Of a stretch of DNA of 41,245 nt, positions 568 through 39,915 are shown in pieces. Source of the DNA: a virus (taxonomy: Duplodnaviria; Heunggongvirae; Uroviricota; Caudoviricetes); IMG/VR virus record IMGVR_UViG_2684622581_000003, one strand, 5' to 3'. Below the pieces are notes generated by a model that worked only from the letters and a program-made list of their open reading frames with translations, had not been told where the DNA came from and made no database searches. Numbering within the stretch: position 1 is the stretch's first letter; every line of letters begins with the position of its first letter. A program made the translations under genes and the position numbers.

Positions 568-582
568 TTAGTATAAAAAAGC
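568..582. repeat. att core copy, ybhB-proximal (attR by lambda convention, P-arm side)
   Basis: 15-bp sequence ttagtataaaaaagc, reverse complement of the lambda common core GCTTTTTTATACTAA, repeated exactly at 39901-39915. Confidence 0.85.
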
Positions 583-728
583 TGAACGTGAAACATTAAA
601 AACCATTAATATCAATGTGTTACAATACCTTTAGTCTAAAAAATAGACTGCGTAATGCTACAAAACACAACATATCCAGTCACTATGAATCAACCACTTA
701 GATGGTATTAGTGACCTGTAACAGAGCA
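583..728. promoter_or_regulatory. att P-arm-like region with arm-type Int binding motif
   Basis: Directly adjoins the core; contains cagtcactatg, which matches the lambda arm-type Int site consensus; AT-rich. Confidence 0.5.
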
Positions 729-768
729 TTAGCGCAAGGTGATTTTTGTCTTCTTGCGCTAATTTTTT
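729..768 (+). terminator. tI/sib-like hairpin terminator beyond the P arm
   Basis: Perfect 10-bp inverted repeat ttagcgcaag / cttgcgctaa (729-738 and 753-762) with 14-nt loop, followed by a T6 run; matches the position expected for the lambda sib/tI element relative to the att core. Confidence 0.6.
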
Positions 769-1070
769 GTCAACATACTGGGTTATCTGAATTTACAACT
801 ATGCTCAGCATCTCGATAAGCGCAGAGAAATGATGCAGTGGTGGGCGGATTGGCTTGATGGAGAGAAAAATAGCGCAACTTTTAGGCCACATCAATGAAA
901 TTGTTTTCCCATGCATGAGCAAAAATTAGAATAACATTGCATAGTCACAGTATCGATCATGATTCACAGCAATGATAGAATACAAATAAATTTAACATGT
1001 TTCCACCGAAACAATCACACATGTAGCATTCGTCTTTTTTTGATGTAATTAACATTAAATGGTATAACAT

Positions 1071-2858
1071 ATGGAACTGAAATACAGACCCGAAATTGAT
1101 GGGTTGAGAACATTAGCTGTTTTACCTGTTATCTTTTTTCATGCAGGTGTTCAATGGATTCCTGGCGGCTTTCTTGGAGTAGATGTTTTTTTTGTTATTA
1201 GTGGTTTTTTAATTACCAGCATTTTGCTGAAAGAATGCAGCAATAGAACATTTACATTCTCTGGGTTTTATGAGAGAAGGGTTCGTAGAATTGCGCCTGC
1301 ATTAATTCTAATGACATCAGTAACATTCATTATATCATTATTTATGATGGTTCCATATGACCTAAAGAATCTAGGTCAATCAGTTGTTGCAACAATTTTT
1401 TCAGCAAACAATATATTATTGTACTTAACGTCAGGATATTGGTCTACAGCATCTGAATTTAAACCATTGTATCACACATGGAGTCTTGCTGTAGAAGAAC
1501 AGTATTATCTTGTAGCCCCTGTAATAATATATATAATTTACTCAATAAATCATAATAAACTAATAAAGAATAGTTTTATGTTTTTACTGGTAATATCAAT
1601 TGCCAGTTTTTTATATGCAACAATTACAACAGTGCATAATATGGAGCTTTCATTTCTTATGCTCCCTTCAAGGGCGTGGGAGATTGCTCTTGGTGGGGTT
1701 GCCGCTATTGCGCACTATAAAATAAAAAGAAAAAGTAACATCTTAGCATACCTTGGTTTTTTATTGATAATATCAAGTTACTTCCTTGTGAATGGTAAAA
1801 AATCACACCCTGGATTTGAAACATTATTTCCAGTTCTTGGTGCATGTTTGTTTTTAATGCATTCAAATGCATCTAAAGGAATTGGAAAGATCATGTCAAT
1901 AAAACCAATTGTGTTATGTGGCATGATAAGTTATTCGCTATACCTTTGGCATCAACCTGTTTTTGCATTTATAAGATTAAACTCAAAATTTGAACCGTCA
2001 ACAACATATTTTATCGCATCCATTCCTTTAATTTTTATTATATCGTGGATGTCTTATGTTTTTGTAGAAAAACCATTCAGAAACAAGAGAAAAACATCTA
2101 CAAAGAAAATCTTATCATATACATTAGCATTTTCGTTGGTGTTATCAGCATCAGGAATTTTGATGCACAAAACATATGGATTGCAAAATATCAGGCCTGA
2201 TCTTGCATATGGAGGAAATCCACAGGAGTATGTGGATAGCCCGAAGAAATTAAAGAATATTGAGTTCTCAGACTATGGAAAGAAAATATTAATCATGGGT
2301 AACTCATATGCGAGAGATTTAATTAATGCAATATCTACAAAGATTAAAACAAATGATCTTAATATTGTATATTTTGAGGGTGGATGTGATTGGTCAATAG
2401 ATAATAAAAATAAATTAGATTACTACTTGAATGACTCAGACATTATTTTATATTCGGAGAATTGGGGTGCAGGCGACTATAATAATAACGTTGAAAAGTT
2501 AAAACACTGTTACGATTACATAAAGTCAAAAACAACTGCAAAAATGTACTTGATTGGCACAAAAAACTTCGGGTATAACAATAACTTTGCTGTTAACCTG
2601 TCTCTTAATGACAGAGTTTTAGCAAAAACATACCCGCTATCAAGATATATAGAGTTTAACAATAAGGCGAAAATGATTTTTGGCGATGACTACATAGATT
2701 TGTTTGACCTTATAAAAGACAACAATGGAATGGTTAGAGTTTTTGATGAGAATGGCAAATTTTTATCATATGATGCAAACCATCTAACGAAATATGGAGC
2801 AAGTTACATTGGAGAAGTCTTAGACAAAAAAACAGACTTACTTCAATCTTTGAAATAA
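1071..2858 (+). CDS. Membrane acyltransferase, acyltransferase-3 family with C-terminal extension (OafA/Oac-like O-antigen acyltransferase), probable lysogenic conversion gene
   Basis: 595-aa ORF with many hydrophobic segments in the N-terminal two thirds and a soluble C-terminal region; strongly AT-rich compared with neighbours; sits between the att site and the tailspike where P22-like phages carry O-antigen modification genes. Confidence 0.8.
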   Translation: MELKYRPEIDGLRTLAVLPVIFFHAGVQWIPGGFLGVDVFFVISGFLITSILLKECSNRTFTFSGFYERRVRRIAPALILMTSVTFIISLFMMVPYDLKNLGQSVVATIFSANNILLYLTSGYWSTASEFKPLYHTWSLAVEEQYYLVAPVIIYIIYSINHNKLIKNSFMFLLVISIASFLYATITTVHNMELSFLMLPSRAWEIALGGVAAIAHYKIKRKSNILAYLGFLLIISSYFLVNGKKSHPGFETLFPVLGACLFLMHSNASKGIGKIMSIKPIVLCGMISYSLYLWHQPVFAFIRLNSKFEPSTTYFIASIPLIFIISWMSYVFVEKPFRNKRKTSTKKILSYTLAFSLVLSASGILMHKTYGLQNIRPDLAYGGNPQEYVDSPKKLKNIEFSDYGKKILIMGNSYARDLINAISTKIKTNDLNIVYFEGGCDWSIDNKNKLDYYLNDSDIILYSENWGAGDYNNNVEKLKHCYDYIKSKTTAKMYLIGTKNFGYNNNFAVNLSLNDRVLAKTYPLSRYIEFNNKAKMIFGDDYIDLFDLIKDNNGMVRVFDENGKFLSYDANHLTKYGASYIGEVLDKKTDLLQSLK

Positions 2859-2892
2859 AATATATAATTTATTAGTCGCTCCCCAAAAAAAT

Positions 2893-2919
2893 ATACCACC
2901 TCTTATGTTGAGGTGGTAT
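2893..2919 (-). terminator. Hairpin terminator between the convergent acyltransferase and tailspike genes
   Basis: 10-bp stem ataccacctc / gaggtggtat with 7-nt loop; on the minus-strand transcript it is followed by a U-run (plus-strand aaaaaaa at 2885-2891). Confidence 0.6.
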
Positions 2920-2950
2920 ATAGATAATAACTATAGACTATTGCGTTTGT

Positions 2951-5125
2951 TTATTTCTGCATCCTTTTTATCTCTCTACGCATATATGCAGCCTCAAGAC
3001 AAAGTATTTCTTCGTAGCGTACAGTGTAACCTGAGTGAGCATCACGTGCCTCCTGAAGCATTACCTGAGTACCATCTTCTAAAATATCGTAAACAGCTTC
3101 TGTTGCTGGGGTATTGTCATAACATAGTATGCCATATTCGAATGGATCAACCCCATGTGATTCAAAAGCTGTCTTGATGTCTTGGGCTATGACCCCAATA
3201 TGTCTCCGGGCTTTACTACCTTTTTCTGCCACGCTTGCCTTTAATTTATATGATACATACTGAACGTCACCCCAGGCGTCGAGAACAGCATCAGGTATTT
3301 GTGACTCTTCTGTTTTTGAGTTTCTGTCTGACGTGACCTGAAAAGCTGTTTGTGTATACCCACCTGACCATGCATATGCTGACGTTCCACATGTTTGAGC
3401 GTTCTGCCGACCAGGCCTAACATAATCTACGCCCCACACGAGAACCGTTGAGGTACCGATATTCCAGTATGCTATATTAGATGTACTATCAACTATTTGT
3501 TGTTGCTGATATTCTCCATTTTTTGTCCGGTATGTTGTTGTTTGAAAGGCTCTAGGCAGAAACTGTAAACCATTAGTGCTAAGGTTTCTTATAGAGTTTT
3601 TAATGTCTGGGCTATTTCCGTCTTGTGTTCTTGCTATAGTCATTCCATCTGAGCAAGGTGGATGTCCATATTTAAGACGAAGATTTTCTATTACGGTAAG
3701 TGATTCTGAGCGATTGGTAACATCACCGGATTTTAGTAAGTACCATCCTGAAGAAGAGCTATTGTGTTCTACAATATTCTTAAACGTAAATTTAGGATCG
3801 GTATAATTCTCTGCATATTGCGGCTGATCCATTAAAACCAATCCTTTAAATTCTGAATCAGAGCGAGAGTTATTAATGTGCATCCCATCAAAAGTTATGT
3901 TGTCAGATTGTGTATTCTCTGTGCCATCTGTTCTTAAGTACAGAAAATTTCCCCCTTTGAAATACTCAAACCAACCATCAATAACTTTGAAATTAAAGAA
4001 CTGCCTTAGTCTAAAAAATGCACCACCAAAAACCTCACCTTTCTCAATCCATGGATTGTTGATGGTAAAATTAAATCCACCTGTTATATCGAAGTAAATT
4101 CTTGCTCTACAGTTTTCGAATATTGGGTTATCCATAACATTGAGATTGAATGCTGCAAAGTTATTTGCACCAGACTTATTCGTAGTAAGAATATATCCTG
4201 AATCGTTCACAGATTTAAATTTAGGGTAATAATGATATACTGCAATCCATGAAGCATTCCATATAGTATGGAATGCTTCCCATGAGCAGTTATATGTTGC
4301 AAAGTTAGCCACCCACTCACCATCATCAGCCTCCATGAACACTGATTTCAGATCAGATACTCCATTACCAATAAACAGTATGTTTTCAAAAAGACATCTC
4401 TCAAATTTGAACATGCCTGGTTGAGTGAACATTGCATAGTTTCCTGATGCTTTGATGGTGGCCCTTCCATTTGGGCATACGATGCTAAAGACTTTACCTG
4501 CCGATGTAGCTATTGGCTTAGATGTCACGTAGACAAATCCAGCAGGAATTAACAATCCAGCATTAGCATTAAGCACAGAAATAACTTTGTCATCCACCTC
4601 TGGATTAGCTAAGCCACTTATTGCCCCTAAATCTTGTATGGATAGCAGGTCAGAATTTTTATCATGCTGAGTCCTTCTTATTGCATCAAAAAAAGGCTGT
4701 TTAACGCCAATTAACGCATCACCTTTACTTTCATCATCTAAATATTTACCCGTTTGAGCAAGCTGATTAACGATGTCAATACTGAATTGGTCGGGGTCAT
4801 ATTTCAGTACATTAGGGAAATAGAACTGCTGAGCACCGTACGCATCATAAACAGCCATAGAATGGCCCTGTACAGTAACGAATTTGGCAATCTGTCCGTT
4901 ATATACAGGATAACCAGCAGCGTTAATGATGATTGGTTGCGAAACAGGAACGTGAGAGCCGTCTTCGTTCTCCACATAAACCTGAATCTGGTTTTCAGGA
5001 TTTACCGGGTTAGTGTCAATTTTTCCTATATAAATTTTGCCATTGGCTACCGCTTTAAAAGAACGAGCCATAGTGAAGAGTTGCGAAGGCATGCTTACCA
5101 CAACATTTGCGGTGATATCTGACAT
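2951..5125 (-). CDS. Tailspike protein: P22-type head-binding N-terminal domain, divergent central receptor-binding domain, C-terminal intramolecular-chaperone (peptidase S74-like) domain
   Basis: N-terminus [11 protein letters not shown]...[15 protein letters not shown]...[13 protein letters not shown]...VLKYDPDQF matches the P22 gp9 head-binding domain; C-terminus [31 protein letters not shown] resembles the auto-cleaving chaperone domain of endosialidase-type fibers. Start placed at the internal Met that aligns with P22 gp9; the ORF-track start is 5173. Confidence 0.85.
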
Positions 5126-5246
5126 TTCATTACTCCAAACGAATGATATGATGCAACCATGATGTGATTGCATACCGAAATGGTACTATTGAGTATTTAT
5201 CCAGTAGGTTACGATGCCATTCCACCCAACTGGTGAGGCATCAAGG

Positions 5247-5507
5247 ATGTACAGCAAATACGACGAGGCGCAGTTTCACTTGAGACTTCCGCATGAACTC
5301 CACGAGAAAATTAAACAGCGCGCGAAGATGAATAACAGGTCGCTGAACTCTGAGATAATTGCAGCGATTGAAGAATCATTGACTAAACAAAGCTCTGCAT
5401 CAGTTTACATTGACGATGCAGAGCGTATGGCAGAACAACAATCTGATATGGTTAAGAAAATTGTCTTTGATACGCTCAAGGAGCTATATAAAAAAGACAG
5501 CAACTAA
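5247..5507 (+). CDS. mnt: Mnt-like ribbon-helix-helix repressor (immI-type)
   Basis: Resembles P22 Mnt (RLPHELHEKIKQRAKMNNRSLNSEIIAAIEESL ... NDAERMAEQQSDMVKKIVFDTLKELYKK); transcribed opposite to the late operon as in P22; start chosen at an internal Met, with 5214 as an alternative. Confidence 0.7.
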   Translation: MYSKYDEAQFHLRLPHELHEKIKQRAKMNNRSLNSEIIAAIEESLTKQSSASVYIDDAERMAEQQSDMVKKIVFDTLKELYKKDSN

Positions 5508-5596
5508 CCATCCATTACGGAGGATTTATGCAAAGAGATATGATGAATATTGCATTCTACATATTTGGTTTTTGCACTTTCCTGGTATTTGCAAAG

Positions 5597-7594
5597 CTAT
5601 TCTGACAACGCATCAGACTTAGCCCCCTGCGTCAGAGCGTTAATTGCATTTTGTGCCTGCTGCATTGCTTTCTCAAAGGCTGTTGATCCGCGTGGGGTGT
5701 TTGCCATTCGGAGCATTGCATTTCTGAATGGCTCGCTCTCATAGGCGCGAGTAAGAAGTCCGTAGCTTACTGCTGCGCCAGTTGTCGCCGGGTTCATTGC
5801 CGTCCCATACCCAATAATGAACGGGATAGTTTGCTGTCCTGTGGGTGTTGTTACTGCCGCTTTTGCAGCCTGCTGCGTGGATTGCAGGTAGTTTTTCAAT
5901 CCTTTCAGATAAGCAGCGTCCTGCCCCTTAAATGTGATGCCAGTCTGGTTTTGCAGGATGTTAAGCTGCCGAAGGAACTGGTCAGGGGATCCGCCAGATT
6001 TCTCCATCGCCTTTCCAATGATGCCATTGCGCATTTGCGCCCTGCCAACACGACCAACTGAGTTATACAGCGTCTTAATTTCAGATTTGTTCTTGCTGAA
6101 TAGCATGTTGTTGACAACTTCCGGCGTCAGATCGCCTTTCATGAGAACATTCTTCAGCCTGGTATTCTTTAGTTTCGCTGCTTCGTCAGCGTAGACGGCA
6201 TTGGCCTGCTGATATTTACGGAGAGTATCGTTGCCAAGATTCTGACCAATGGCACCATTGATATCGTCTGTCATCGCCTTGTAAACGCGCTGAATGGCGG
6301 CATCGGAACGGTTTGGTAACACTGGTCGCTCACCCTTCACGTCCATTCTGAACTGGCTGCGCAGGTCGCTTAATTGCTTCAAATCCAGATTTACCGGACC
6401 ATCAGGACCAGCATTGCGAACAAGCTCATCACGATATGACTGAAGTTTTGAAATAGTCTCGTTATCAGCAACCTTACCAAGCTTCTGCAGGTTAGATATT
6501 TCTGTATCAATCTGCTGAATTGCTCGTGCAGGCTGAATGTTTACTCCAGCCATAGCATTCTGAACCTGCTCCAGTCGATTACCGGCGGCACGACGAATTC
6601 CTGATGTTTTCGCTTTAAGGCTGTCAATAACAACAGCTGGATCATACTCACCGAATTTATCAGCAAATCTCTGCACCAACTGGCTTCTCGCTTCCTGTTG
6701 CGTTGCTCTCATTCCGCTTGTGCCAGCCAGAGGGATATTTTCTGCTGTAGTCTGCGCCATTTTTCCGACGCGTGAAGTTGGTTGTAACAGGTCTGTGGTG
6801 TGCAGAGGAACTCCTTCACGCTCTGCAAATCTGATAGCCTGCTGCGCTTCTGGCGCAATAGCACCACGTACGCCACGATAAGCAGCACCTAATCCACGTC
6901 CGGCAGCGTTAATAGCACCGCCAGCCAGCACACCAACGCCTAAATCGGTGGCGAGTGCTTCCGCATCATCTTTCGCACTATTTGCAGCAAGTGATCCAAC
7001 TGCGTTTTCAGCGAGAAGGCGAGTTGCACCCTGAGCAATTCGACCAGCAAGTGTTGGTGCCTGTGTTGCCGCTCTCTCAACGCCAGCAGGAGTGAGGTAA
7101 GGCAATGCTTCAGCAAATACCCTTCCCTCTGTCGTTTGTGGAGTCAGCGCGCCTTGCTGAAGGCCAAAGTCCTGCTCTAATCCCTGCGTTGTTACTCGTG
7201 GCGCTGGGTGATATGTACCATCGCCAATGCCGAGTTTACCGCCAGCCCAAGCCGCCGCGCTTGTTACAGCATCTGCAACTGATGCAGGTATGTTTGCCAC
7301 GTTCACGCCAGCCTGCACCAGTCCGCGACCAGTCTCTTTTACTGCTTCGCCAAGATCAGACATAAATCCACTTTGCTGTGGTTGTTGCTGTGCTTCTGGT
7401 TGTTGTGTCTCCACTGGCTGCACAGATGGCAATGGATAGGCAGCATAGAAAGCTTGCTTAGCCTGCTCTGCATTTTCTCCGGCTTGCGGGGCCACGACTT
7501 CATTGAAGTATTGCTCCTGAGCCTGCGCTTTTTGTTCTGGTGCTAACGCCTGATACTGTGGAGAGGCGATAACATCTTTCCATGCTTTAGCCAT
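5597..7594 (-). CDS. Ejection (internal virion) protein, P22 gp16-like
   Basis: 665-aa ORF in the P22 gp16 position at the end of the gp7-gp20-gp16 series; Ala/Gln/Gly-rich composition typical of ejection proteins. Confidence 0.7.
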   Translation of the reverse strand: MAKAWKDVIASPQYQALAPEQKAQAQEQYFNEVVAPQAGENAEQAKQAFYAAYPLPSVQPVETQQPEAQQQPQQSGFMSDLGEAVKETGRGLVQAGVNVANIPASVADAVTSAAAWAGGKLGIGDGTYHPAPRVTTQGLEQDFGLQQGALTPQTTEGRVFAEALPYLTPAGVERAATQAPTLAGRIAQGATRLLAENAVGSLAANSAKDDAEALATDLGVGVLAGGAINAAGRGLGAAYRGVRGAIAPEAQQAIRFAEREGVPLHTTDLLQPTSRVGKMAQTTAENIPLAGTSGMRATQQEARSQLVQRFADKFGEYDPAVVIDSLKAKTSGIRRAAGNRLEQVQNAMAGVNIQPARAIQQIDTEISNLQKLGKVADNETISKLQSYRDELVRNAGPDGPVNLDLKQLSDLRSQFRMDVKGERPVLPNRSDAAIQRVYKAMTDDINGAIGQNLGNDTLRKYQQANAVYADEAAKLKNTRLKNVLMKGDLTPEVVNNMLFSKNKSEIKTLYNSVGRVGRAQMRNGIIGKAMEKSGGSPDQFLRQLNILQNQTGITFKGQDAAYLKGLKNYLQSTQQAAKAAVTTPTGQQTIPFIIGYGTAMNPATTGAAVSYGLLTRAYESEPFRNAMLRMANTPRGSTAFEKAMQQAQNAINALTQGAKSDALSE

Positions 7595-8982
7595 TAATCA
7601 CCCCATAGTGAAGAAAAGTTACTGCTGGCTGCTGGCTGTGATACCTGTGCAGGTTGAGATTGCTGCCGCTGAGATTTACCAACATTAACGTTATATTGTT
7701 GGTTGTAATTGTTGGTGTATTCCTGAATCTCACGAATCGACTGCTGCATAGCCTCCGGGCTTGAATAGTCAACCTGCGGCATCCCCTGAAAATACATCTT
7801 CGCTTCTGCAACGGTGTTAATACCACTGGCACCCATATCCCTTGCTGCCGCCACACCCTGATTCTGCATTCTGCCCTGAATACGTTGTGCTGAGTTATAT
7901 AACTGGCGCTGCTCTTTTCCTGTTAATCGGCTGCGAACATCAGCACCAATTGCTGGATTACCTGCACCGCCTGTCATTCCTGTCATGAAATCGAGAGCAG
8001 AAGCGTCTGCATTTGCGATCGCGTCGATATCCTTCTTCATGGCATAGTTTTGTGCTGATGCAGACGATGTTGCAGGCGCTGCGATTGAACTGGCAGGAAC
8101 GCGAACCATATTCCCCTCGTTGTCGATGCCTTCGTAGAACGCATTAGCCCCAGCGCCGTGAAGTTTCCCTCCTACCGTTACAGTTCTGCCATCTGATAAC
8201 TGAACTGTACGCTCATCATTCCCAGCGGTTCCTCTTGTTGACGCTCGCTGCATTGCCAAATCCTGCCCGCGTCTCGCAGTAGAAGCAGATAAGTCCTGAC
8301 CGCGCATCGTGATGTTCTGGCCTCGTGCTGTTAGCGCCTCGCCAGCCTGATTGCTGCGGATTGTCTCTGCCAGCCTGCCTCGGTCAATCTCACGACCTGC
8401 CATCTTGTCCTGAACATTGAAGTAATCAATCGGACCAAGAGCAGCCATCCCAAGGTGATCAACAAACTCACCAAATCCTGAAGGATTCTGCTGATACATC
8501 TGAGCAACGTTATTAGGGTCAACACCGACGCGAGTCAGTTCCTTGGCGTTGTTTTGCAGCCATGATTGCATTGCTTCTGGAGACGATGACGCAAGGCGTG
8601 CGCCAGCCGCTAAGGTGCCTATAGAATTGCGCTGGTCTTCATCAATGAATCCCATGCCTTTACGAACGGATTCAATCTGGTCTGGATATTGAGTAGCCAA
8701 CTGACGAAAAGCACCGCGATCACCAGACGCATAAGCATTAGCGTATGCCTGCTGAAATTCTTTCTGCCGCTGAGCCTGCTTTTCCTGCTGAAAAACACCC
8801 GCAATACCTGAAAGACCTTGCAAAGCAGTCAGCCCAACATTGTTAGCGCCTGAACGCTCAATATCATTGTTCTGCCTGATAAGCTGAAGCGTATTGCCGA
8901 TGTCATTTACGCTCGGAGCGTTTGAGTTGACGCCGCCGATACCAGCCAACAATCCGCCGTTTGTTCCTTGCCAAGTAGCCAT
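7594..8982 (-). CDS. Ejection protein, P22 gp20-like
   Basis: 462-aa ORF, position and size match P22 gp20; start overlaps the stop of the upstream gene. Confidence 0.7.
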
Positions 8983-8991
8983 GATTACCCC

Positions 8992-9684
8992 TTAAAACAA
9001 CGAGCCAAGCAATCCGATACCAGCACCAATGCCAGCGCCCCAAGGCGTTGATGTTCCCAAAAGGCTGGCAAGACCTGCACCGGCAATCGCACCAGACGTG
9101 CCACCGCTAATTGCAGTCTGAAGACTTGATGGTTTATTGGCATTAGCAGCGGCAAGTGCTGCGCTTTGCTGTGCAATGCTGCTCATGTTGTTGGCGTACG
9201 TCTGCCCGGCGTTTGCCTGACCTTGCAGCGCACCAAGCCCAACGTTTGCCAGATTGTTGTAATTGCTCATCTGATTTGATAACCAAGACTGACCGAGTGT
9301 CGGCGCGATCGTAGCCAGTTGATTGCTTGTGGCTGTCGAACCAAGTCCTCCCGTAGCCTCCGCAGCAGCAAGACTCTGGTAACGAGCCTGACCTGCAAGG
9401 TCTTTATACTGCTGAGAGTTGTAATACTGATTAAGTGCCTGCCCCTGACCTTCTAAACTGGAAAGGTTCTGAAGCTGGTTAACATACTGCTCCGCAAGAG
9501 GCGTGAACAGAGCAAGGTTTTTCATGATCGTCTGCCACTGCTGATTTTGCAGGTCTGCTGCATACTTCTGAGCTTCTGCTGCATACTTTGCGCTTTTATC
9601 AGAGCTGCCACCTTTCCCGCCTTTTTCAGGGCAATAAGGTTCCTCGCCACGCAGTTTTCTGCCTAGCTTAAATGCATATAACAT
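8992..9684 (-). CDS. Ejection protein, P22 gp7-like
   Basis: 230-aa ORF, size and position match P22 gp7 (229 aa). Confidence 0.7.
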   Translation of the reverse strand: MLYAFKLGRKLRGEEPYCPEKGGKGGSSDKSAKYAAEAQKYAADLQNQQWQTIMKNLALFTPLAEQYVNQLQNLSSLEGQGQALNQYYNSQQYKDLAGQARYQSLAAAEATGGLGSTATSNQLATIAPTLGQSWLSNQMSNYNNLANVGLGALQGQANAGQTYANNMSSIAQQSAALAAANANKPSSLQTAISGGTSGAIAGAGLASLLGTSTPWGAGIGAGIGLLGSLF

Positions 9685-9686
9685 GG

Positions 9687-10142
9687 CTATCTCCCGTGAT
9701 TCAGGAAGTCGATTAGTTCTTCGCGTGTGGCGCTGTAAAACGTCACGTCATCCACGCCTTTGAAGTATTTCTTGATGGTTCCTACACGCTTAAGGCCAAT
9801 CATTGCGCAGTACATCTGACCGTGGCGGAATTTGCGCGCAGCGAACGATGTGACGCACTGAACGGTGGTGTTAGTCAGAATGTATCGCCAGAACGCCAGC
9901 CCGATTTCCTTGCTGAATCCACGAACCTCTGGCAGGTACATGGCGTGGCAATCGAATGTAAGCGGCTGAATTTCCTGATAGTAAACAATGCCGCCAAACT
10001 GACCGTGCACGTTAACCTCAAAGTAACGGCATTCAGGCTTGTAGTCGTATCCATCACCGTTGTTGCTTCCGGCAATAATGTCAGGGTGATTTCCGACTGC
10101 TTCTATCAGGTCGATGTTTCGCGTTGGTTTGAACTGAACCAT
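9687..10142 (-). CDS. Virion protein, P22 gp14-like
   Basis: 151-aa ORF between the tail needle and gp7 homologues, the P22 gene 14 position. Confidence 0.6.
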   Translation of the reverse strand: MVQFKPTRNIDLIEAVGNHPDIIAGSNNGDGYDYKPECRYFEVNVHGQFGGIVYYQEIQPLTFDCHAMYLPEVRGFSKEIGLAFWRYILTNTTVQCVTSFAARKFRHGQMYCAMIGLKRVGTIKKYFKGVDDVTFYSATREELIDFLNHGR

Positions 10143-10990
10143 TACTGCTCCGCGATTATCTTGATGGTTGTGGCAGTAAACGCCGCACCATTTGACTGAA
10201 TGGTTAACGTGCTGCCATTTGTGGCAAGAAAGCCGTCTTTATCCACGCTGAAGAACGTAGCTAACAGGATGTTATCGGTCGTTGTCGCCGAGTTGCGACT
10301 GCTTACCAGTGTGTCAGGAACAGAGCCGGAAAATGTTAGTTGCATTGACCTGTTGGCGGTTCCGCTGGGCCACGTCCCGACGATCGACAGCTTGAAGAAC
10401 AGGGTTTTGTTCTCGTTGAACACAACCATCTTGTTGTTAACGGTGTCGAAGAATGGTGCCAACGAGCCTGATGACGGCGTGAGCGTTTTCAGCAGGCTAA
10501 CAAGGTTGGTCGGCGCTGTCGGAATGGTTACAGATACGCCAGAGTAAACAACCTCTGACTTTTTGCGAGTAGTGGCATACTCCAGAGAATCGATGCGCGA
10601 TTCATGGTCTGAAACCTGCGACTCCAGCGACTGAACTCTGGTATCAAGCGACGCAATATCGCTTTCATTCTGAGCGATTCGCGTTTCATGTTCCTGAAGA
10701 GTTGATTCTGCCTGGCTGATTCGCTCCTCATGATTAACAAGCGTTGCTTCCGCAGCAGAAATTCGCTGCTCATGGTCAGCGAGAATCACATCCTGCTCAT
10801 CGTTCCTGACCTGTGCATCATAAGCGCCCTGTCCGGCCTCGTTGGCCTTGTTAGCCACGTTACCAACATCAGTGCCCTGTGCGATAACGTAAAGCAGATA
10901 CGACTGCGAGAAGATATTGCGTGGAAGGACTGATGTGTCGAGTCGTGTAGTCTGAATGATTACCGGCACATTGAGATTCGAATCCGCCAT
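10142..10990 (-). CDS. Tail needle protein (P22 gp26-like) with C-terminal knob extension
   Basis: 282-aa ORF with heptad-rich central coiled coil ([65 protein letters not shown]) and extra C-terminal domain, as in Sf6/HK620-type needles. Confidence 0.75.
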
Positions 10991-13128: not shown

Positions 13129-13141
13129 GTTTGTCTCCAGA

Positions 13142-13166: not shown

Positions 13167-13173
13167 CTGGTTA

Positions 13174-15380: not shown

Positions 15381-15393
15381 GGTTAACTCTCTC

Positions 15394-26458: not shown

Positions 26459-26460
26459 CG

Positions 26461-29531: not shown

Positions 29532-29813
29532 TCAGGCCTCGAAGAATTCGCCGTTCTTCGGGGCTTTTTCTTTTGTCAGGTAATTGGCAAGCCGCTTAGT
29601 CAGCTCAGCCATTTCATCGTCTTCGATTCCGTATTCCAGAACAGCCAGCATCATGCTTACCTGCGAGAAGAAACCATTCTTCCATCGGCTTACCTGATAT
29701 TCAGGAACCCCCATCGCTCGAGCGAATGTCTTCTGCCCCATCAGTGCCAGTTTGTTCAGCAAGGCTGACTCGATGCGAGCCGCTTTCTTGCTTTTAGTTG
29801 CAATAGTACCCAT
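29532..29813 (-). CDS. cII: CII-like transcriptional activator
   Basis: 93-aa ORF similar to lambda CII (ARIESALLNKLA ... QVSRWK ... FSQVSMMLAVLEYG). Confidence 0.8.
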   Translation of the reverse strand: MGTIATKSKKAARIESALLNKLALMGQKTFARAMGVPEYQVSRWKNGFFSQVSMMLAVLEYGIEDDEMAELTKRLANYLTKEKAPKNGEFFEA

Positions 29814-29889: not shown

Positions 29890-29921
29890 GCCCTTTTTCA
29901 GGGCTGTGATGTGTAAGAGCT
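29890..29921 (-). promoter_or_regulatory. nutR (boxA plus boxB)
   Basis: Minus strand reads AGCTCTTACACA ... GCCCTGAAAAAGGGC, matching lambda nutR boxA/boxB, between cro and cII. Confidence 0.85.
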
Positions 29922-29929: not shown

Positions 29930-30145
29930 TTAAGCGGCTTTGTGTTCCGGCGGGAACACGTCATCAAGACTGACTTTTGCACCTAACTTGTTTAGGCACT
30001 CAACAAGAGCACGGCATGTTTTAAGGTCTGGGAAGCGACGACCAGATTCCCAATGTCCGATAGCTCCCTGTGTGCATCCAACTGCCTTAGCAAGTGTTGT
30101 TTGAGAGATATTCAGTGACTCTCGATATTTTCGTAGGTTGCTCAT
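29930..30145 (-). CDS. cro: Cro-like HTH repressor
   Basis: 71-aa HTH-XRE protein (ISQTTLAKAVGCTQGAIGHWESG) divergent from cI; start set at the internal Met next to the operator region. Confidence 0.75.
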   Translation of the reverse strand: MSNLRKYRESLNISQTTLAKAVGCTQGAIGHWESGRRFPDLKTCRALVECLNKLGAKVSLDDVFPPEHKAA

Positions 30146-30263
30146 ATGCCCTCCATAGTAACCATGAAACAATAATACGATATGTACTTTTAGAATGCAA
30201 ACAAAAAAATACATCTTGTGCATGGATGGTTTTAGTACAGAGCGTAATAATAAGGGTATGAAA
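30146..30263. promoter_or_regulatory. Right operator/promoter region (OR, PR, PRM) between divergent cro and cI
   Basis: 118-bp AT-rich divergent intergenic region; individual operators not resolved by eye. Confidence 0.5.
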
Positions 30264-30917
30264 ATGAAATGGTATGAACTGGCTAGATCCAGAATGAAAG
30301 AGCTCGGCATAACTCAAGAGAAGTTAGCTGAAGAGCTTGGTATGACGCAGGGTGGAATTGGTCACTGGTTGCGCGGATCTCGTCATCCATCTCTTGACGA
30401 GATTGGTGTGGTGTTTAAATACCTTGGTATTGATAACGTCTCATTCAACCACGACGGTACATTTTCACCTGTTGGCGAATACTCATCTGCCCCCGTTAAA
30501 AAACAATATGAGTACCCTGTTTTTTCTCATGTTCAGGCCGGGATGTTCTCGCCTGAGCTTAGAACCTTTACCAAAGGTGATGCGGAGAGATGGGTCAGCA
30601 CAACCAAAAAAGCCAGTGATTGTGCGTTCTGGCTTGAAGTTGAAGGTAATTCCATGACCGCGCCAACAGGATCCAAGCCAAGCTTTCCTGACGGGATGTT
30701 AATTCTCGTTGACCCTGAGCAGGCTGTTGAGCCAGGTGATTTCTGCATAGCCAGACTTGGTGGTGACGAGTTTACCTTCAAGAAACTGATCAGGGATAGC
30801 GGTCAGGTGTTCCTACAGCCACTAAACCCGCAATATCCAATGATTCCATGCAATGATAGCTGTTCCGTAGTAGGGAAAGTTATCGCCAGCCAGTGGCCTG
30901 AAGAGACATTTAGTTAA
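30264..30917 (+). CDS. cI: CI repressor: non-lambda N-terminal HTH domain fused to a lambda-type C-terminal LexA-like (S24) cleavage/dimerisation domain
   Basis: C-terminal region [52 protein letters not shown]...[11 protein letters not shown] matches lambda CI; N-terminal region does not. Start chosen at the ATG with AAGGG 7 nt upstream; the ORF track begins at 30195. Confidence 0.85.
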
Positions 30918-31110: not shown

Positions 31111-31141
31111 TGCTCTTAAAAATTTAGCCCTGAAGAAGGGC
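31111..31141 (+). promoter_or_regulatory. nutL (boxA plus boxB)
   Basis: tgctcttaa followed by gccctgaagaagggc, matching lambda nutL boxB. Confidence 0.85.
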
Positions 31142-31251: not shown

Positions 31252-31578
31252 ATGGATGCACAAACACGCCGCCGCGAACGTCGCGCAGAGAAACAGGCTC
31301 AATGGAAAGCAGCAAATCCCCTGTTGGTTGGGGTAAGCGCAAAACCAGTTAACCGCCCTATTCTCTCGCTGAATCGCAAACCGAAATCACGAGTAGAAAG
31401 CGCACTGAATCCGATAGACCTTACGGTGCTGGCTGAATACCACGAACAGATTGAAAGCAACCTGCAACGTATTGAGCGCAAGAATCAGCGCACATGGTAC
31501 AGCAAGCCACGTAGTGAAATGGGTGTGACTTGTGTTGGTCGCCAGAAAATGAAATTAGGCAGCAAACCACTTATTTGA
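31252..31578 (+). CDS. N: N antiterminator, lambda type
   Basis: MDAQTRRRERRAEKQAQWKAANPLLVGVSAKPVNRPILSLNRKPKSRVESALNPIDLTVLAEYH.QIESNLQRIERKNQRTWYSKP matches lambda N; start set at the aligned Met. Confidence 0.9.
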   Translation: MDAQTRRRERRAEKQAQWKAANPLLVGVSAKPVNRPILSLNRKPKSRVESALNPIDLTVLAEYHEQIESNLQRIERKNQRTWYSKPRSEMGVTCVGRQKMKLGSKPLI

Positions 31579-31589
31579 GAGGAATTAAT

Positions 31590-32213
31590 ATGTCATCAAT
31601 CCGCTTAACTACGAGAATGAAAGAGAAAATCGCTCGTAACGCTTTAATTAAGTGTGGGGTTTTCACTGAGCTTGAAGAAGTAACAAAGTTAAAGAACCAG
31701 CTTGCACTTGACGCCAGAGTTATTGCGTTTGGCGGTAAAAAGAAAACTGAGGAAGTGGATCAGTTATCATCCAAGTTGGTAGCTATAAGTGAAGAACTTG
31801 GAAAGATGGGATGTTCATTTTACTCATACGATGTTCGTTCTACTTCAATTTATCTGACTGTATCTGGCAGAAGGGCTGGATGGCATTCATATGGGAAAGA
31901 CGGCAACGGCGAAGATATATTGCTCCCTACTCCGACAAAAGATAAATGCATGTTTGACGCAGAGCACGAAATAACAAAAAGGTTTGATGAAATCTGCTCA
32001 TTACAACAAAAACTTGAAGCCAAGAAAAAGGATATCGAATCAAATGTATGGGCTGCTTTAAACTCAGTCACAACAGTTAAGCGACTTATTGAGGTTTGGC
32101 CTGAAAGCAAAGAGTTGCTACCAAAAGAAGCAGATAAAGCAAGTACAGCACTTCCTGCTTTACGGGTAGAAGATTTGAATAAGATGATTGGACTTCCTTC
32201 CGATGCCGCATAA
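31590..32213 (+). CDS. Hypothetical protein (207 aa), AT-rich accessory gene immediately downstream of N
   Basis: ORF with GAGAGGA Shine-Dalgarno 8 nt upstream of the ATG; AT-rich and Lys-rich; no recognisable family; lies upstream of the first intrinsic terminator of the PL operon. Confidence 0.65.
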   Translation: MSSIRLTTRMKEKIARNALIKCGVFTELEEVTKLKNQLALDARVIAFGGKKKTEEVDQLSSKLVAISEELGKMGCSFYSYDVRSTSIYLTVSGRRAGWHSYGKDGNGEDILLPTPTKDKCMFDAEHEITKRFDEICSLQQKLEAKKKDIESNVWAALNSVTTVKRLIEVWPESKELLPKEADKASTALPALRVEDLNKMIGLPSDAA

Positions 32214-33380: not shown

Positions 33381-33512
33381 ATGATTTACGCAATCGCGGG
33401 AGGCGCTCGCATGGGTGCCTTCCAACTAAATGAATCTTTACTTGAACGAATCACCCGTAAATTACGTGACGGATGGAAAAGAGTTGAGGTCTTATTATGC
33501 GCAATGAAATAG
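33381..33512 (+). CDS. cIII: CIII-like protease inhibitor
   Basis: Hand-translated 43-aa ORF MIYAIAGGARMGAFQLNESLLERITRKLRDGWKRVEVLLCAMK; the ESLLERITRKLRDGWKR core matches lambda CIII; AAGGA Shine-Dalgarno upstream. Confidence 0.6.
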   Translation: MIYAIAGGARMGAFQLNESLLERITRKLRDGWKRVEVLLCAMK

Positions 33513-33649
33513 CCATCAATCACCAGATGCTTCGTGCAGCACAGAACAAAGCAGTAATAGCCAGATTTATTGGTGATTCAAAAATGTGGATTGAAGCAAA
33601 TAAAGCGATGAAATCAGCTATCAACCTTCCGTGGTATCGCAGGAAATGA
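33497..33649 (+). CDS. kil: Kil-like host cell-division inhibitor
   Basis: Hand-translated 50-aa ORF MRNEIAINHQMLRAAQNKAVIARFIGDSKMWIEANKAMKSAINLPWYRRK, resembling lambda Kil (IATFIGDEKMF...); overlaps the cIII stop. Confidence 0.5.
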   Translation: MRNEIAINHQMLRAAQNKAVIARFIGDSKMWIEANKAMKSAINLPWYRRK

Positions 33650-33905
33650 GTTTTACAGATAACTGGTCAGACGAAGAATTCATTCGTCAGATGAAAGATT
33701 TAATCGGTAACGAAGGAGATATTCATGTCACTTGCAACCACAGTGAAGGAGAGCAAGTTACAGAGACGCATGTACACGCAGAAAGCTCTCTGGTATCGCC
33801 ATAATGGTGACCGCGAAGGAATGCGGGTATGCCTTAATTTGTCCCGAGTCGAAGTATTAAATCAGCGTTATTTCCTTGGGCCGTGTCCATTCTGAGAACA
33901 AACAT

Positions 33906-34511
33906 ATGAGCAAAGAATTTTACGCAAGACTGGCAGCCATTCAGGAGAATCTGAACGCGCCAAAGAATCAGTACAACTCATTCGGTAAATATAAATACAG
34001 AAGCTGCGAAGACATTCTTGAAGGCGTTAAGCCGTTACTGAATGGCCTGTTTTTATCAATCAGCGATGAAGTTGTGTTGATTGGTGATCGGTATTACGTG
34101 AAAGCAACAGCAACTATTACTGATGGCGAAAACAGTCATACAGCAACCGCCCTTGCACGAGAGGAAGAAAGCAAGAAAGGAATGGATTCTGCACAAGTTA
34201 CTGGAGCTACAAGCTCTTATGCACGCAAGTATTGCCTCAATGGTTTGTTCGGCATTGATGATGCGAAAGATGCAGATACCGACGAGCATAAACATCAGCA
34301 GAACGCAGCAGCAAAGCAATCAAAACCATCACCTACATCTGAACAGGTTCTAAAAGCATTCACTGACGCAGCATTGCAGAAAAACACCGTAGAAGAGCTT
34401 AAACAGGCGTTCGCCAAAGCGTGGAAGATGCTCGAAGGCACACCGGAGCAGCACAAAGCGCAGGACGTTTACAACATCAGACGAGACGAATTAGAAGGAG
34501 CGGCTGCTTAA
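33906..34511 (+). CDS. erf: Erf-family single-strand annealing recombinase (P22 Erf-like)
   Basis: MSKEFYARLAAIQENLNAPKNQYNSFGKYKYRSCEDILEGVKPLL.GLFLSISDE.VLIGDRYYVKATATITDGENSH matches P22 Erf; start set at the aligned Met. Confidence 0.9.
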   Translation: MSKEFYARLAAIQENLNAPKNQYNSFGKYKYRSCEDILEGVKPLLNGLFLSISDEVVLIGDRYYVKATATITDGENSHTATALAREEESKKGMDSAQVTGATSSYARKYCLNGLFGIDDAKDADTDEHKHQQNAAAKQSKPSPTSEQVLKAFTDAALQKNTVEELKQAFAKAWKMLEGTPEQHKAQDVYNIRRDELEGAAA

Positions 34512-34894
34512 TGGCACATTCGATTACTGTAAGACTAAACAAGCCCGCAAGAGAGTTTCAGGCCGGGGAAAATATCGGATTCAACATCCGTGCTGGCGTT
34601 CAGTATTACGATCGCCAGACAAAAAAGAAAGAATGGACAAACTACAGCGCCGTTGTATTTGCCAAGCCGGGAGCGCAAGCGGATTACTACCGTAGTGTTC
34701 TTGTTGAAGGTGGCATTGTAGAAATTACCGGAGAAAACATCAGGGTTGATGTTTATCAGGGGCAAAATGGTCAATCAATCACTCTTGAATTACTGAATGC
34801 AAAGATTGGATTTGCAACTTCAGGAAACAGCCAACAGCAACAAAGTAGCAATCATCAAAATCATCCTGAATACGACGATTCAATTCCCTTCTAA
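34511..34894 (+). CDS. SSB-like single-stranded DNA-binding protein (occupies the P22 abc1 position)
   Basis: 127-aa protein whose C-terminal tail EYDDSIPF resembles the SSB acidic tip (DDDIPF); ATG overlaps the erf stop (TAATG). Confidence 0.55.
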   Translation: MAHSITVRLNKPAREFQAGENIGFNIRAGVQYYDRQTKKKEWTNYSAVVFAKPGAQADYYRSVLVEGGIVEITGENIRVDVYQGQNGQSITLELLNAKIGFATSGNSQQQQSSNHQNHPEYDDSIPF

Positions 34895-34917
34895 ATTAGC
34901 AACATAAGGATTCCATT

Positions 34918-35211
34918 ATGCCAGCGCCTCTGTATGGTGCGGATGACCCGCGCCGCTGTTCCGGCAATTCCGTATCGGAGGTGCTGGATAAATTCAGGAA
35001 AAACTACGATCGAATAATGTCTCTACCGCAGGAAACGAAAGAGGAAAAGGAATTTCGCCATTGTATATGGCTTGCAGAGAAAGAAGAACGCGAGCGAATT
35101 TACCAGACATCAATCCAACCATTCCGCAAAGCCACATATACCCACTTCCCTGAAATTGACCCGCGCCTGCGTAATTACCGCTCACGCTATGGCGCTATCA
35201 GTAATGACTGA
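34918..35211 (+). CDS. abc2: Abc2-like anti-RecBCD protein
   Basis: 97-aa ORF (same size as P22 Abc2) downstream of erf; identification by recall and synteny. Confidence 0.55.
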
Positions 35212-38267: not shown

Positions 38268-38447
38268 ATGTCTTGTCCAAAATGCGGTTCTGGAAATATT
38301 GCAAAAGAAAAAACAATGCGTGGATGGTCTGATGATTATGTGTGCTGCGATTGCGGATACAACGACTCTAAAGACGCATTTGGAGAGCGTGGTAAAAACG
38401 AGTTTGTCAAAATTAATAAAGAACGCGAAGGCAACGAAAAAAGCTAA
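38268..38447 (+). CDS. Small zinc-ribbon protein
   Basis: 59-aa ORF with CPKCG ... CCDCG motif; GGAGG Shine-Dalgarno 7 nt upstream. Confidence 0.5.
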   Translation: MSCPKCGSGNIAKEKTMRGWSDDYVCCDCGYNDSKDAFGERGKNEFVKINKEREGNEKS

Positions 38448-38512
38448 TTTATTTATTCATATATGAAAACAATGTAACCAATATTCGAATTGAAGAACTG
38501 AAAGAACACCAA

Positions 38513-38536
38513 GCCGCCTGATGGCGGTTTTTTATT
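38513..38536 (+). terminator. Possible weak intrinsic terminator upstream of xis
   Basis: 5-bp GC stem ccgcc / ggcgg with 4-nt loop followed by a T6 run. Confidence 0.35.
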
Positions 38537-38560
38537 GCGTGTAATTGCGGAGACTTTGCG

Positions 38561-38779
38561 ATGTACTTGACACTTCAGGAGTGGAACGCACGCCAGCGAC
38601 GCCCAAGAAGCCTTGAAACAGTTCGTCGATGGGTACGCGAGTGCAGGATATTTCCTCCTCCGGTTAAGGATGGAAGAGAGTATCTGTTCCACGAATCAGC
38701 GGTAAAGGTTGACTTAAATCGACCAGTAACAGGTAGCCTTTTGAAGAGGATCAGAAATGGGAAGAAGGCGAAGTCATGA
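38561..38779 (+). CDS. xis: Excisionase, lambda Xis
   Basis: 72-aa ORF matching lambda Xis (MYLTLQEWNARQRRPRSLETVRRWVRECRIFPPPVKDGREYLFHESAVKVDLNRP...). Confidence 0.95.
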   Translation: MYLTLQEWNARQRRPRSLETVRRWVRECRIFPPPVKDGREYLFHESAVKVDLNRPVTGSLLKRIRNGKKAKS

Positions 38780-39827
38780 GCGCCGGGATTTACCCCCTAA
38801 CCTTTATATAAGAAACAATGGATATTACTGCTACAGGGACCCAAGGACGGGTAAAGAGTTTGGATTAGGCAGAGACAGGCGAATCGCAATCACTGAAGCT
38901 ATACAGGCCAACATTGAGTTATTTTCAGGACACAAACACAAGCCTCTGACAGCGAGAATCAACAGTGATAATTCCGTTACGTTACATTCATGGCTTGATC
39001 GCTACGAAAAAATCCTGGCCAGCAGAGGAATCAAGCAGAAGACACTCATAAATTACATGAGCAAAATTAAAGCAATAAGGAGGGGTCTGCCTGATGCTCC
39101 ACTTGAAGACATCACCACAAAAGAAATTGCGGCAATGCTCAATGGATACATAGACGAGGGCAAGGCGGCGTCAGCCAAGTTAATCAGATCAACACTGAGC
39201 GATGCATTCCGAGAGGCAATAGCTGAAGGCCATATAACAACAAACCCTGTCGCTGCCACTCGCGCAGCAAAATCAGAGGTAAGGAGATCAAGACTTACGG
39301 CTGACGAATACCTGAAAATTTATCAAGCAGCAGAATCATCACCATGTTGGCTCAGACTTGCAATGGAACTGGCTGTTGTTACCGGGCAACGAGTTGGTGA
39401 TTTATGCGAAATGAAGTGGTCTGATATCGTAGATGGATATCTTTATGTCGAGCAAAGCAAAACAGGCGTAAAAATTGCCATCCCAACAACATTACATGTT
39501 GATGCTCTCGGGATATCAATGAAGGAAACACTTGATAAATGCAAAGAGATTCTTGGCGGAGAAACCATAATTGCATCTACTCGTAGTGAACCGCTTTCAT
39601 CCGGCACAGTATCAAGGTATTTTATGCGCGCACGAAAAGCATCAGGTCTTTCCTTCGAAGGGGATCCGCCTACCTTTCACGAGTTGCGCAGTTTGTCTGC
39701 AAGACTCTATGAGAAGCAGATAAGCGATAAGTTTGCTCAACATCTTCTCGGGCATAAGTCGGACACCATGGCATCACAGTATCGTGATGACAGAGGCAGG
39801 GAGTGGGACAAAATTGAAATCAAATAA
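38757..39827 (+). CDS. int: Integrase, lambda Int (tyrosine recombinase)
   Basis: 356-aa ORF matching lambda Int along its length (MGRRRSHERRDLPPNLYIRNNGYYCYRDPRTGKEFGLGRDRRIAITEAIQAN...), overlapping xis as in lambda. Confidence 0.97.
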   Translation: MGRRRSHERRDLPPNLYIRNNGYYCYRDPRTGKEFGLGRDRRIAITEAIQANIELFSGHKHKPLTARINSDNSVTLHSWLDRYEKILASRGIKQKTLINYMSKIKAIRRGLPDAPLEDITTKEIAAMLNGYIDEGKAASAKLIRSTLSDAFREAIAEGHITTNPVAATRAAKSEVRRSRLTADEYLKIYQAAESSPCWLRLAMELAVVTGQRVGDLCEMKWSDIVDGYLYVEQSKTGVKIAIPTTLHVDALGISMKETLDKCKEILGGETIIASTRSEPLSSGTVSRYFMRARKASGLSFEGDPPTFHELRSLSARLYEKQISDKFAQHLLGHKSDTMASQYRDDRGREWDKIEIK

Positions 39828-39900
39828 TGATTTTATTTTGACTGATAGTGACCTGTTCGTTGCAACAAATTGATAAGCAATGCTTTTTTATAATGCCAAC
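39828..39900. promoter_or_regulatory. att P-prime arm (Int arm-type and IHF site region)
   Basis: Sequence between the int stop and the core is the reverse complement of the lambda P-prime arm as recalled (gtcactatcagtcaaaataaaatca ...). Confidence 0.7.
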
Positions 39901-39915
39901 TTAGTATAAAAAAGC
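39901..39915. repeat. att core copy, int-proximal (attL by lambda convention)
   Basis: ttagtataaaaaagc, identical to 568-582. Confidence 0.9.

Follow-up and report, generated by a model that had tools for sequence, protein, structure and literature searches.

What kind of phage occupies the classical lambda attachment site of an Escherichia coli chromosome when the genes on either side of the junctions point to two different textbook phages is the question raised by a 41,245-nucleotide (nt) stretch of DNA from the IMG/VR virus record IMGVR_UViG_2684622581_000003 (hereafter, the window). P22 has long been classed as a lambdoid phage, and lambda-P22 hybrids were made in the 1970s. A preliminary description of the window, made from its letters and its open reading frames (ORFs), presented the resident element as a lambda/P22 chimeric prophage occupying attLambda. 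Here, the element is delimited at positions 568-39915, the outer edges of two att cores, and is apparently an intact, temperate, lambdoid phage of the P22 group lodged in the lambda site. We consider it very probable that it represents the integrated 39,333-bp genome of a temperate lambdoid P22-like podophage, which would have entered between ybhC and ybhB through lambda-Int-mediated recombination of attP with attB. The length that the phage genome between the cores would have is typical of the group (Sf6, 39,043 bp; HK620, 38,297 bp).

Module boundaries were mapped by whole-genome comparison with eight reference phages, comprising the five named in the preliminary description—lambda, P22, HK620, Sf6, and CUS-3 (CP000711)—together with IME10, Huey, and Dewey, and the proteins were compared ORF by ORF against six phages. 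The coordinates of all principal features are collected in Table 1.

Attachment sites and integration machinery

In the window there are exactly two copies of the 15-bp lambda att core GCTTTTTTATACTAA, each on the minus strand, whereas 100 shuffles of the sequence contained none. Outside both cores lie the two arms of lambda attB, with CTTGAGCGAAACG, the lambda attB arm, on the outer side of the attR core; inside lie the P arm on the left and the P′ arm on the right. Within the P arm, the P1/P2 arm-type sites ACAGGTCACTAAT and ATAGTGACTG are invariant, and the P′ arm, int, and xis share 99% nucleotide identity with lambda. The chromosomal flanks are ybhB and ybhC, and bioA-bioB-bioF-bioC-bioD-uvrB lies upstream of ybhB in the source contig. 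With a lambda core at both ends and these two host genes outside them, the location and limits first assigned to the element are exact to the base.

The encoded Int is a tyrosine recombinase with a lambda arm-binding domain; it shares 352 of its 356 residues with lambda Int and retains all six catalytic positions (R212, K235, H308, R311, H333, and Y342). Xis departs from its lambda counterpart by a single substitution. The catalytic residues, the cores and arms at the junctions, and the ybhC-ybhB location are thus those of the lambda Int/Xis system, in agreement with the lambda-type integration machinery and att site originally proposed. Such occupancy is common: the int-xis block beside ybhC (window positions 38400-41245, at least 80% coverage) is found in 1,853 of 5,426 complete E. 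coli genomes, so that about one third of sequenced E. coli carry, at attLambda, a phage with a lambda-type integrase.

Along the element, lambda-type segments are interspersed with P22-type ones, and the window derives from a draft contig, as might be expected of a lambda remnant beside a P22-like prophage or of a mis-assembled contig. However, the two att cores are the only ones in the window and every function is present in a single copy, on which grounds both tandem elements and mis-assembly are rejected. Moreover, at 39.3 kb the element has the right size for one P22-type headful genome, and its joints fall where module boundaries are also found in independent genomes. The isolated phage Huey and the closed genome of E. 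coli 88-3493 likewise link this int, xis, and attP to P22-like virion genes. An artefactual or composite origin is therefore regarded as very improbable, and the single integrated phage genome is retained as the working interpretation.

Virion module and packaging

Casjens and Thuman-Commike (2011) reportedly defined P22-like phages by their possession of the P22 virion-assembly gene cluster. In the element, the 13 virion genes of P22 are collinear on one strand (2951-19531, minus) in the order 3-2-1-8-5-4-10-26-14-7-20-16-9, all at full length, and their products match the P22-family Pfam profiles GP3_package, P22_portal, Phage-scaffold, P22_CoatProtein, P22_Tail-4, Phage_stabilise, Inj_translocase, Phage_tail_NK, and Head_binding. 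Amino acid identity to P22 is 73% for the coat protein, 78% for the portal, 85% for the scaffold, and 93% for both gp2 and gp10. Coat, scaffold, and portal are 99-100% identical to their IME10 counterparts, gp7 is 100% identical to that of IME10, gp16 is 99% identical to that of Sf6 over its full 665 residues, and the tail needle gp26 bears an Sf6-type knob (97% amino acid identity). By contrast with lambda, whose head and tail genes (lambda 1-27 kb) found no nucleotide or protein match in the element and placed it outside Lambdavirus, the virion gene content leads us to predict a short-tailed (podovirus) particle.

Packaging specificity offers a finer view of how this module was put together. 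The large terminase is not of lambda type, neither lambda cosN nor the 60-bp cos junction has any match in the window, and the annotated P22 pac site GAAGATTTATCTGAAGTCGTTA is present within gene 3 at 22 of 22 positions. Packaging is thus predicted to proceed by the headful (pac) rather than the cos route. The small terminase gp3 is 100% identical to P22 gp3 at the amino acid level, a departure from the adjacent head genes, which are about 78% identical to P22 in nucleotide sequence, and from the gp3 of IME10, the closest overall relative, at 82%; together with the exact pac site, this points to a recent and very local exchange of packaging specificity at gene 3. The P22-type virion module, with a pac-type terminase and no cos, accordingly stands as it was first described. 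The pac site is oriented toward ybhB and bio, and in situ packaging begun before excision could therefore lead to lateral transduction of the bio-uvrB flank, a process reported for phiHS3.

Within the ejection proteins, gp20 is 69% identical to P22 over 449 residues and its exact sequence is deposited as WP_053265686.1. As a separate observation, this protein (7594-8982, minus; PF16928) is itself mosaic: its N-terminal 250 residues are 89% identical to Sf6, and the remainder aligns with P22 alone.

Early regulation and immunity

The element carries one complete, collinear lambdoid regulatory set, namely cI, cro, cII, cIII, N with nutL and nutR, and Q. Its antiterminator N is identical to lambda N over residues 1-64, including the arginine-rich motif, and differs at one position over residues 1-86. 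The boxB elements of nutR and nutL each match their lambda equivalents exactly, and each boxA matches at seven of eight positions. An N protein with this arginine-rich motif and boxA/boxB pairs downstream of PL and PR constitute the lambda N/nut antitermination system, which the preliminary description had recognized correctly.

The remaining regulators have other affinities. The late antiterminator Q is of the phage-21/Sf6 type, and blastp searches at E ≤ 1e-5 returned no match between it and either lambda Q or P22 gp23. The PR′/qut/tR′ region upstream of Q is collinear with Sf6 as far as the Sf6 transfer RNA (tRNA) genes, which come after Q in that phage; the element lacks them, and a tRNA scan of the window found none. 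Of the 131 residues of cI from 110 to 240, 128 are shared with lambda cI, among them the Ala-Gly cleavage site and the Ser/Lys dyad motifs, and the alignments indicate that the repressor is a domain hybrid, in which a lambda-like C-terminal dimerization and self-cleavage domain is joined to a foreign, unrelated N-terminal helix-turn-helix domain. The cro gene is likewise non-lambda. The whole immunity region shares 99% nucleotide identity with Dewey, Louie, vB_EcoP-683R2, and vB_EcoP-720R6 and recurs at about 93% in Stx phages; immunity is non-lambda. Candidate operators in this region resemble AGTAC-N5-GTACT palindromes.

An additional ORF at 31530-32213 (plus) directly follows N, in the slot of lambda ral/sieB, and matches the Nmad5 domain over its full length (PF18757, 2e-70). 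It is absent from all eight reference phages. Point mutants of Nmad5 allow Dhillonvirus phages to escape the Tmn defence system (PMC11846954). A PADLOC scan of ten accessory ORFs of the element gave no defence-system match.

Replication, recombination, nin region, and lysis

The replication and recombination genes had been characterized collectively as P22-like, which holds for recombination and, for replication, in kind alone. The Erf recombinase (PF04404) is 75% identical and Abc2 (PF11043) 93% identical to the P22 proteins, and between them lies a short SSB-like protein (PHROG 44) with the C-terminal end DDSIPF; the stretch from cIII to Abc2 is 97% identical in nucleotide sequence to CUS-3. 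An apparent frameshift at the erf/ssb overlap was dismissed: the start codon of the SSB-like gene is the ATG at position 34511, and the stop codon of erf overlaps it. The replication module resembles that of P22 in pairing an initiator with a DnaB-type helicase, but its proteins are of Sf6 type. The initiator is 100% identical to Sf6 gp43 (Sf6/HK022 type), with a weak C-terminal match to P22 gp18 (E 2e-4) and no similarity to lambda O, and the helicase (PF00772 and PF03796) is 31% identical to P22 gp12. Within the initiator gene, at 28858-28975, the 11-bp iteron GTTGGACAACC is arranged in two clusters of three, 44 bp apart, which presumably form the replication origin.

The lambda-type character ascribed to the nin genes and lysis cassette is similarly partial. 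It is borne out by ninE-ninI (23693-25484), at 97.7% nucleotide identity to lambda, and by holin S and endolysin R, at 99% and 98% amino acid identity, respectively. It does not extend to NinB, which matches PF05772 yet is 43% identical to the lambda protein, to the position of lambda ninC, which is taken by a Dam-family DNA N6-adenine methyltransferase (PF05869, 3.5e-65), or to Rz, which is of P22 type (88% amino acid identity to P22 gp15 versus 58% to lambda Rz).

Between the lysis and terminase genes, an Rfam int-alpA RNA motif was detected at 21076-21138 (minus) with a score of 45 bits against a gathering score of 35.8. It lies directly upstream of a 72-residue DUF551 ORF (20841-21059), and the segment containing both matches none of the eight reference phages.

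The putative conversion gene and the tailspike beside attR

The most distinctive segment of the element, 861-4654, lies beside attR. It begins with an island of low guanine-cytosine (GC) content (861-2950; GC 0.31-0.33, compared to about 0.50 for the phage) and encodes a predicted AT3+SGNH O-antigen acetyltransferase of OafA/OafB-like architecture, with an Acyl_transf_3 membrane domain at the N terminus and an SGNH domain at the C terminus, a moron whose product matches PHROG 6705, "O-antigen acetylase," at 1e-134. Its identity to known phage Oac proteins is at most about 31%, and its best match among the 5,426 complete E. coli genomes is 83% at the nucleotide level. The exact protein is present as WP_053265683.1, its cluster at 90% identity contains 40 members from E. 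coli and E. marmotae, and a sequence search of the PDB returned no match. Because the gene is convergent with that of the tailspike, at the position of P22 gtrABC and Sf6 oac where conversion genes usually reside, it likely mediates lysogenic (serotype) conversion matched to the tailspike receptor.

The tailspike exhibits a three-part organization consisting of a P22 head-binding domain, a foreign receptor-binding domain, and a C-terminal Peptidase_S74 intramolecular chaperone. The head-binding domain matches the full PF09008 profile at 1.2e-66 and is 95-96% identical to those of IME10, HK620, and Huey, compared to 66% for P22. The receptor-binding part is unrelated to P22 gp9. Rather, residues 147-739 align at 74% identity with the "tail fibre" proteins of two unrelated phages, Shigella phage DS8 (44.6 kb) and Escherichia phage HK2 (70 kb), that did not surface in DNA searches with the prophage; the central domain has no sequence relatives in the PDB. 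It is possible, if somewhat doubtful, that the acetylase and tailspike constitute a new serotype-conversion pair, in which the prophage O-acetylates the very polysaccharide that its tailspike recognizes, creating a new O-antigen variant and excluding superinfection.

Next to the tailspike gene stands an mnt-like gene, the remnant of an immI region from which arc, ant, and sieA are absent; what is left of immI control may therefore now act on the tailspike alone. The two genes are divergent across an 88-bp spacer, an arrangement that recurs in IME10 at 96% identity.

Table 1. Positions of the principal features of the element and its chromosomal flanks in the 41,245-nt window
Feature	Position	Strand	Evidence
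ybhB, host flank on the bio side of attLambda	1-477	+	158-residue PBP-family ORF; 97-99% nucleotide identity to E. coli ybhB
attR core (15-bp lambda overlap/core)	568-582	-	Exact match to GCTTTTTTATACTAA
Lambda-type attP P arm with P1/P2 arm-type Int sites	583-860	-	87% to lambda 27528-27742; 93% to Huey
AT3+SGNH O-antigen acetyltransferase, 595 residues, moron	1071-2858	+	PF01757 (7-329); PF19040 (403-585)
Terminator-like hairpin between the convergent acetylase and tailspike genes	2891-2921	-	12-bp stem followed by T run
Tailspike, 724 residues (as called in the source record)	2951-5125	-	PF09008 17-129; PF13884 615-674 (long-ORF numbering)
Mnt-like Arc-family repressor, immI remnant	5214-5507	+	PF03869, PF11423; amino acid identity 96% to IME10, 50% to P22 Mnt
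Ejection proteins: gp16 5597-7594; gp20 7594-8982; gp7 8992-9684	5597-9684	-	
gp14 9687-10142; needle gp26 10142-10990; gp10 10990-12408; gp4 12408-12908	9687-12908	-	PF16532, PF11134, PF11650
Coat gp5 13174-14469; scaffold gp8 14469-15380; portal gp1 15394-17559	13174-17559	-	PF11651, PF09306, PF16510, full profiles
Large terminase gp2 17560-19059; small terminase gp3 19037-19531	17560-19531	-	PF03237, PF17289, PF16677
pac site in gene 3	19237-19258	-	22/22 exact to annotated P22 pac
Lysis cassette: S 22390-22713; R 21930-22406; Rz 21496-21933; embedded Rz1 21549-21734	21496-22713	-	
Late antiterminator Q, phage-21/Sf6 type, 172 residues	23177-23695	-	99% amino acid identity to Sf6 gp59; PF06530
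nin region: ninI, ninH, ninG, ninF, ninE; methyltransferase 25488-26015; ninB 26012-26506	23686-26506	-	
Replication module: DnaB-type helicase 27033-28484; initiator 28459-29349	27033-29349	-	99-100% amino acid identity to Sf6 gp44 and gp43
cII-like activator	29532-29813	-	49-57% amino acid identity to lambda cII, P22 c1, Sf6 gp41
nutR	29890-29921	-	boxA AGCTCTTA, 9-nt spacer, boxB GCCCTGAAAAAGGGC
Immunity region: cro 29930-30145 (-); operators; cI 30195-30917 (+)	29930-30917		
nutL	31111-31141	+	boxA TGCTCTTA, 8-nt spacer, boxB GCCCTGAAGAAGGGC
Antiterminator N, lambda type, 108 residues	31252-31578	+	
cIII; kil; Erf 33906-34511; SSB-like 34511-34894; Abc2 34918-35211	33381-35211	+	
Lambda-type xis 38561-38779 and int 38757-39827	38561-39827	+	PF09003, PF00589, PF07825
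attL core	39901-39915	-	Exact lambda core; inner side lambda P′ arm, outer side attB arm
ybhC, host flank on the gal side of attLambda	39962-41245 (window end)	+	99.8% nucleotide identity to E. coli ybhC

Integrity of the prophage and its predicted life cycle

When the ORFs were compared with their homologues in the six phages, no essential gene was found to be truncated, split, or interrupted by an insertion sequence (IS). Every essential ORF is full length, the structural proteins match their Pfam profiles end to end, and the cis-acting sites that were checked—att, arm sites, nut, pac, and the presumed origin—are all intact. The absence of any obviously disrupted essential gene, noted at the outset, is thereby upheld. 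Full-length genes and intact sites together suggest that the prophage is probably functional, and the lambda-type cleavage domain of cI leads us to expect that it is inducible.

The modules can be assembled into a coherent, if predicted, life cycle. In the lysogen, cI would repress PL and PR, and the O-antigen acetyltransferase beside attR would be expressed and modify the lipopolysaccharide, leading to lysogenic conversion and exclusion. RecA activated by the SOS response would trigger self-cleavage of cI through its lambda-type C-terminal domain; N would then drive read-through of terminators at the lambda-type nut sites, Int and Xis would excise the genome, and the phage-21-type Q would turn on the late operon. 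Finally, gp3 and gp2 would carry out headful packaging from pac into a T=7 P22-type capsid, and six tailspike trimers, with a receptor domain derived from unrelated phages, would complete a short-tailed virion that recognizes a surface polysaccharide.

Several considerations weigh against so complete a picture. Outside its conserved arm sites, the P arm is just 87% identical to lambda; Int differs from lambda Int by H164P, A245T, I248V, and R277S; immI is reduced to mnt; and missense or regulatory defects would not be visible in the sequence. The source is a contig (CXXA01000021.1) of a draft assembly (GCA_001268425.1), in which sequencing errors in either direction are possible, and neither a phage record nor a complete E. 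coli genome contains the exact combination, which leaves the assembly unconfirmed by a second copy. Some of these points would also be accounted for by a cryptic prophage that looks complete, has become non-inducible or non-infectious through point mutations or regulatory decay, and is kept for its conversion gene: function is not directly readable from sequence, Int bears its four substitutions, immI is degraded, and the Sf6 tRNA genes located after Q have no counterpart. However, decay of this kind is difficult to reconcile with essential ORFs of full length, Pfam matches that run end to end, and pac, nut, att cores, arm sites, and iterons that are all intact. No IS element or truncation was found, unlike in Sf6, whose ninG carries IS911, and arc and ant are also absent from the infectious phages Sf6, Huey, and Dewey. 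A cryptic state is consequently considered unlikely, and a functional temperate phage remains the favored interpretation.

A multi-parent mosaic

The label of lambda/P22 chimera captures the lambda-type integration and the P22-type virion module; the two-parent origin that it implies does not survive comparison with other phages. The largest part of the element aligns with IME10 (58%, at about 96% identity) and Sf6 (46%, about 96%), followed by Dewey (42%), Huey (41%), P22 (39%, at a mean identity of 81%), CUS-3 (27%), HK620 (26%), and lambda (15%, about 96%), and 6.6 kb matches none of the eight references. Because several phages align, with lambda at 15% and P22 at 39%, the element is best described, on these alignments, as an E. 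coli/Shigella P22-like phage whose genome is a multi-parent mosaic and not as the product of a recent lambda × P22 cross.

Most of its modules are 94-99% identical to those of database phages, and the element could on this basis be taken for the integrated state of a phage already named. Yet the best phage records cover 67% and 60% of its two halves, none reaching 80% of either; the closest reference, IME10, accounts for the 58% given above; 6.6 kb has no counterpart in any of the eight references; and none of the 5,426 complete E. coli genomes covers at least 80% of either half. This identification is rejected as exceedingly improbable, and a mosaic phage with a combination of its own is preferred. 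The product of aligned fraction and identity is at best 0.56 among the eight references (IME10); the nucleotide criterion of the International Committee on Taxonomy of Viruses (ICTV) for the genus Lederbergvirus is about 70% intergenomic similarity. Many ICTV members of Lederbergvirus fall under 70% among themselves (phiHS3 preprint, 2026).

As such, the element provides a clean example of lambdoid modular exchange, in which P22-type virion and packaging genes are combined with lambda-type integration and N, a phage-21-type Q, and Sf6-type replication. It adds to the temperate podophages of E. coli one that appears to be functional, may alter the O antigen of its host and hence its serotype and phage susceptibility, and offers, in its tailspike, another instance in which receptor-binding domains have passed from one phage morphotype to another. 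No concept is changed by it, P22-like phages at the lambda site having already been isolated and characterized, and its practical value is modest.

Comparison with known phages and prophages

Among its relatives, IME10 (NC_019501), Dewey, and Louie are closest in the head, packaging, and most tail genes (95-97% nucleotide identity); IME10 further shares the replication module at 98%, and Dewey and Louie the immunity region at 99%. In contrast to the element, these phages employ an IntS-type integrase, carry other tailspike receptor domains and needles without the Sf6-type knob, and lack the AT3-SGNH acetylase, and Dewey has RecT/Gam and a DnaC-type loader. Sf6 (NC_005344) resembles the element in gp16, gp7, gp14, the knobbed needle, gp10, Q-PR′, nin, replication, the N region, and a gene 33 homologue, as well as in an O-acetyltransferase gene convergent with the tailspike gene beside att. 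It differs in its head and terminase type, IntS integrase, 434-like immunity, tRNA genes after Q, IS911 in ninG, and a 333-residue, AT3-only Oac.

The two phages of the original label are more distant. With P22 (NC_002371), the element shares the virion gene order, gp3, pac, Erf, Abc2, and Rz, although most of the virion module is about 78% identical at the nucleotide level, compared to 96% at the gene 3 end. P22 has its own int and attP, gtrABC, and a full immI (mnt, arc, ant, sieA); gene 24 takes the place of N and gene 23 serves as Q, the replication proteins and the tailspike enzyme are different, and integration is into thrW (PMC2629481). With lambda (NC_001416), the element shares int, xis, attP, N, the boxB elements, ninE-ninI, S, R, and the C-terminal domain of cI, whereas cos, the head and tail genes, O, P, exo, bet, gam, rexAB, the N-terminal domain of cI, cro, Q, and ninC of lambda are absent from it.

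The rarity that the preliminary description implied for a podovirus at the lambda site is not borne out, as earlier examples of lambda Int at attLambda exist among both phages and prophages of the P22-like type. More generally, integration modules vary among P22-like phages, as exemplified by thrW and argU (PMC2629481). The isolated podovirus-group phage Huey (PQ850609; proposed "Hueyvirus," including phiHS3) has the same int, xis, and attP, with 99% nucleotide identity in int-xis, and shares the N, Q, lysis, and replication modules at 94-99%; it differs in its CUS-3/Sf6-type head genes (coat, 26% amino acid identity), terminase, and tailspike. For phiHS3, a P22-like phage, a 2026 preprint demonstrates integration upstream of ybhC, induction by mitomycin, lateral transduction, and podovirus morphology. 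A prophage in the closed genome of E. coli 88-3493 (NZ_CP027457, ~239.2-278.1 kb) occupies the same site in the same polarity, with a virion module at about 97% nucleotide identity and the order ybhB, acyltransferase, tailspike, P22-type virion genes, early genes, xis, 356-residue int, and ybhC. It is set apart by another tailspike, a 354-residue acyltransferase on the opposite strand, RecT, a 207-residue Q, RusA, and a different immunity. Compared with these precedents, the element is a new combination of well-known modules, and the kind of prophage that it represents is already documented and ordinary for E. coli.

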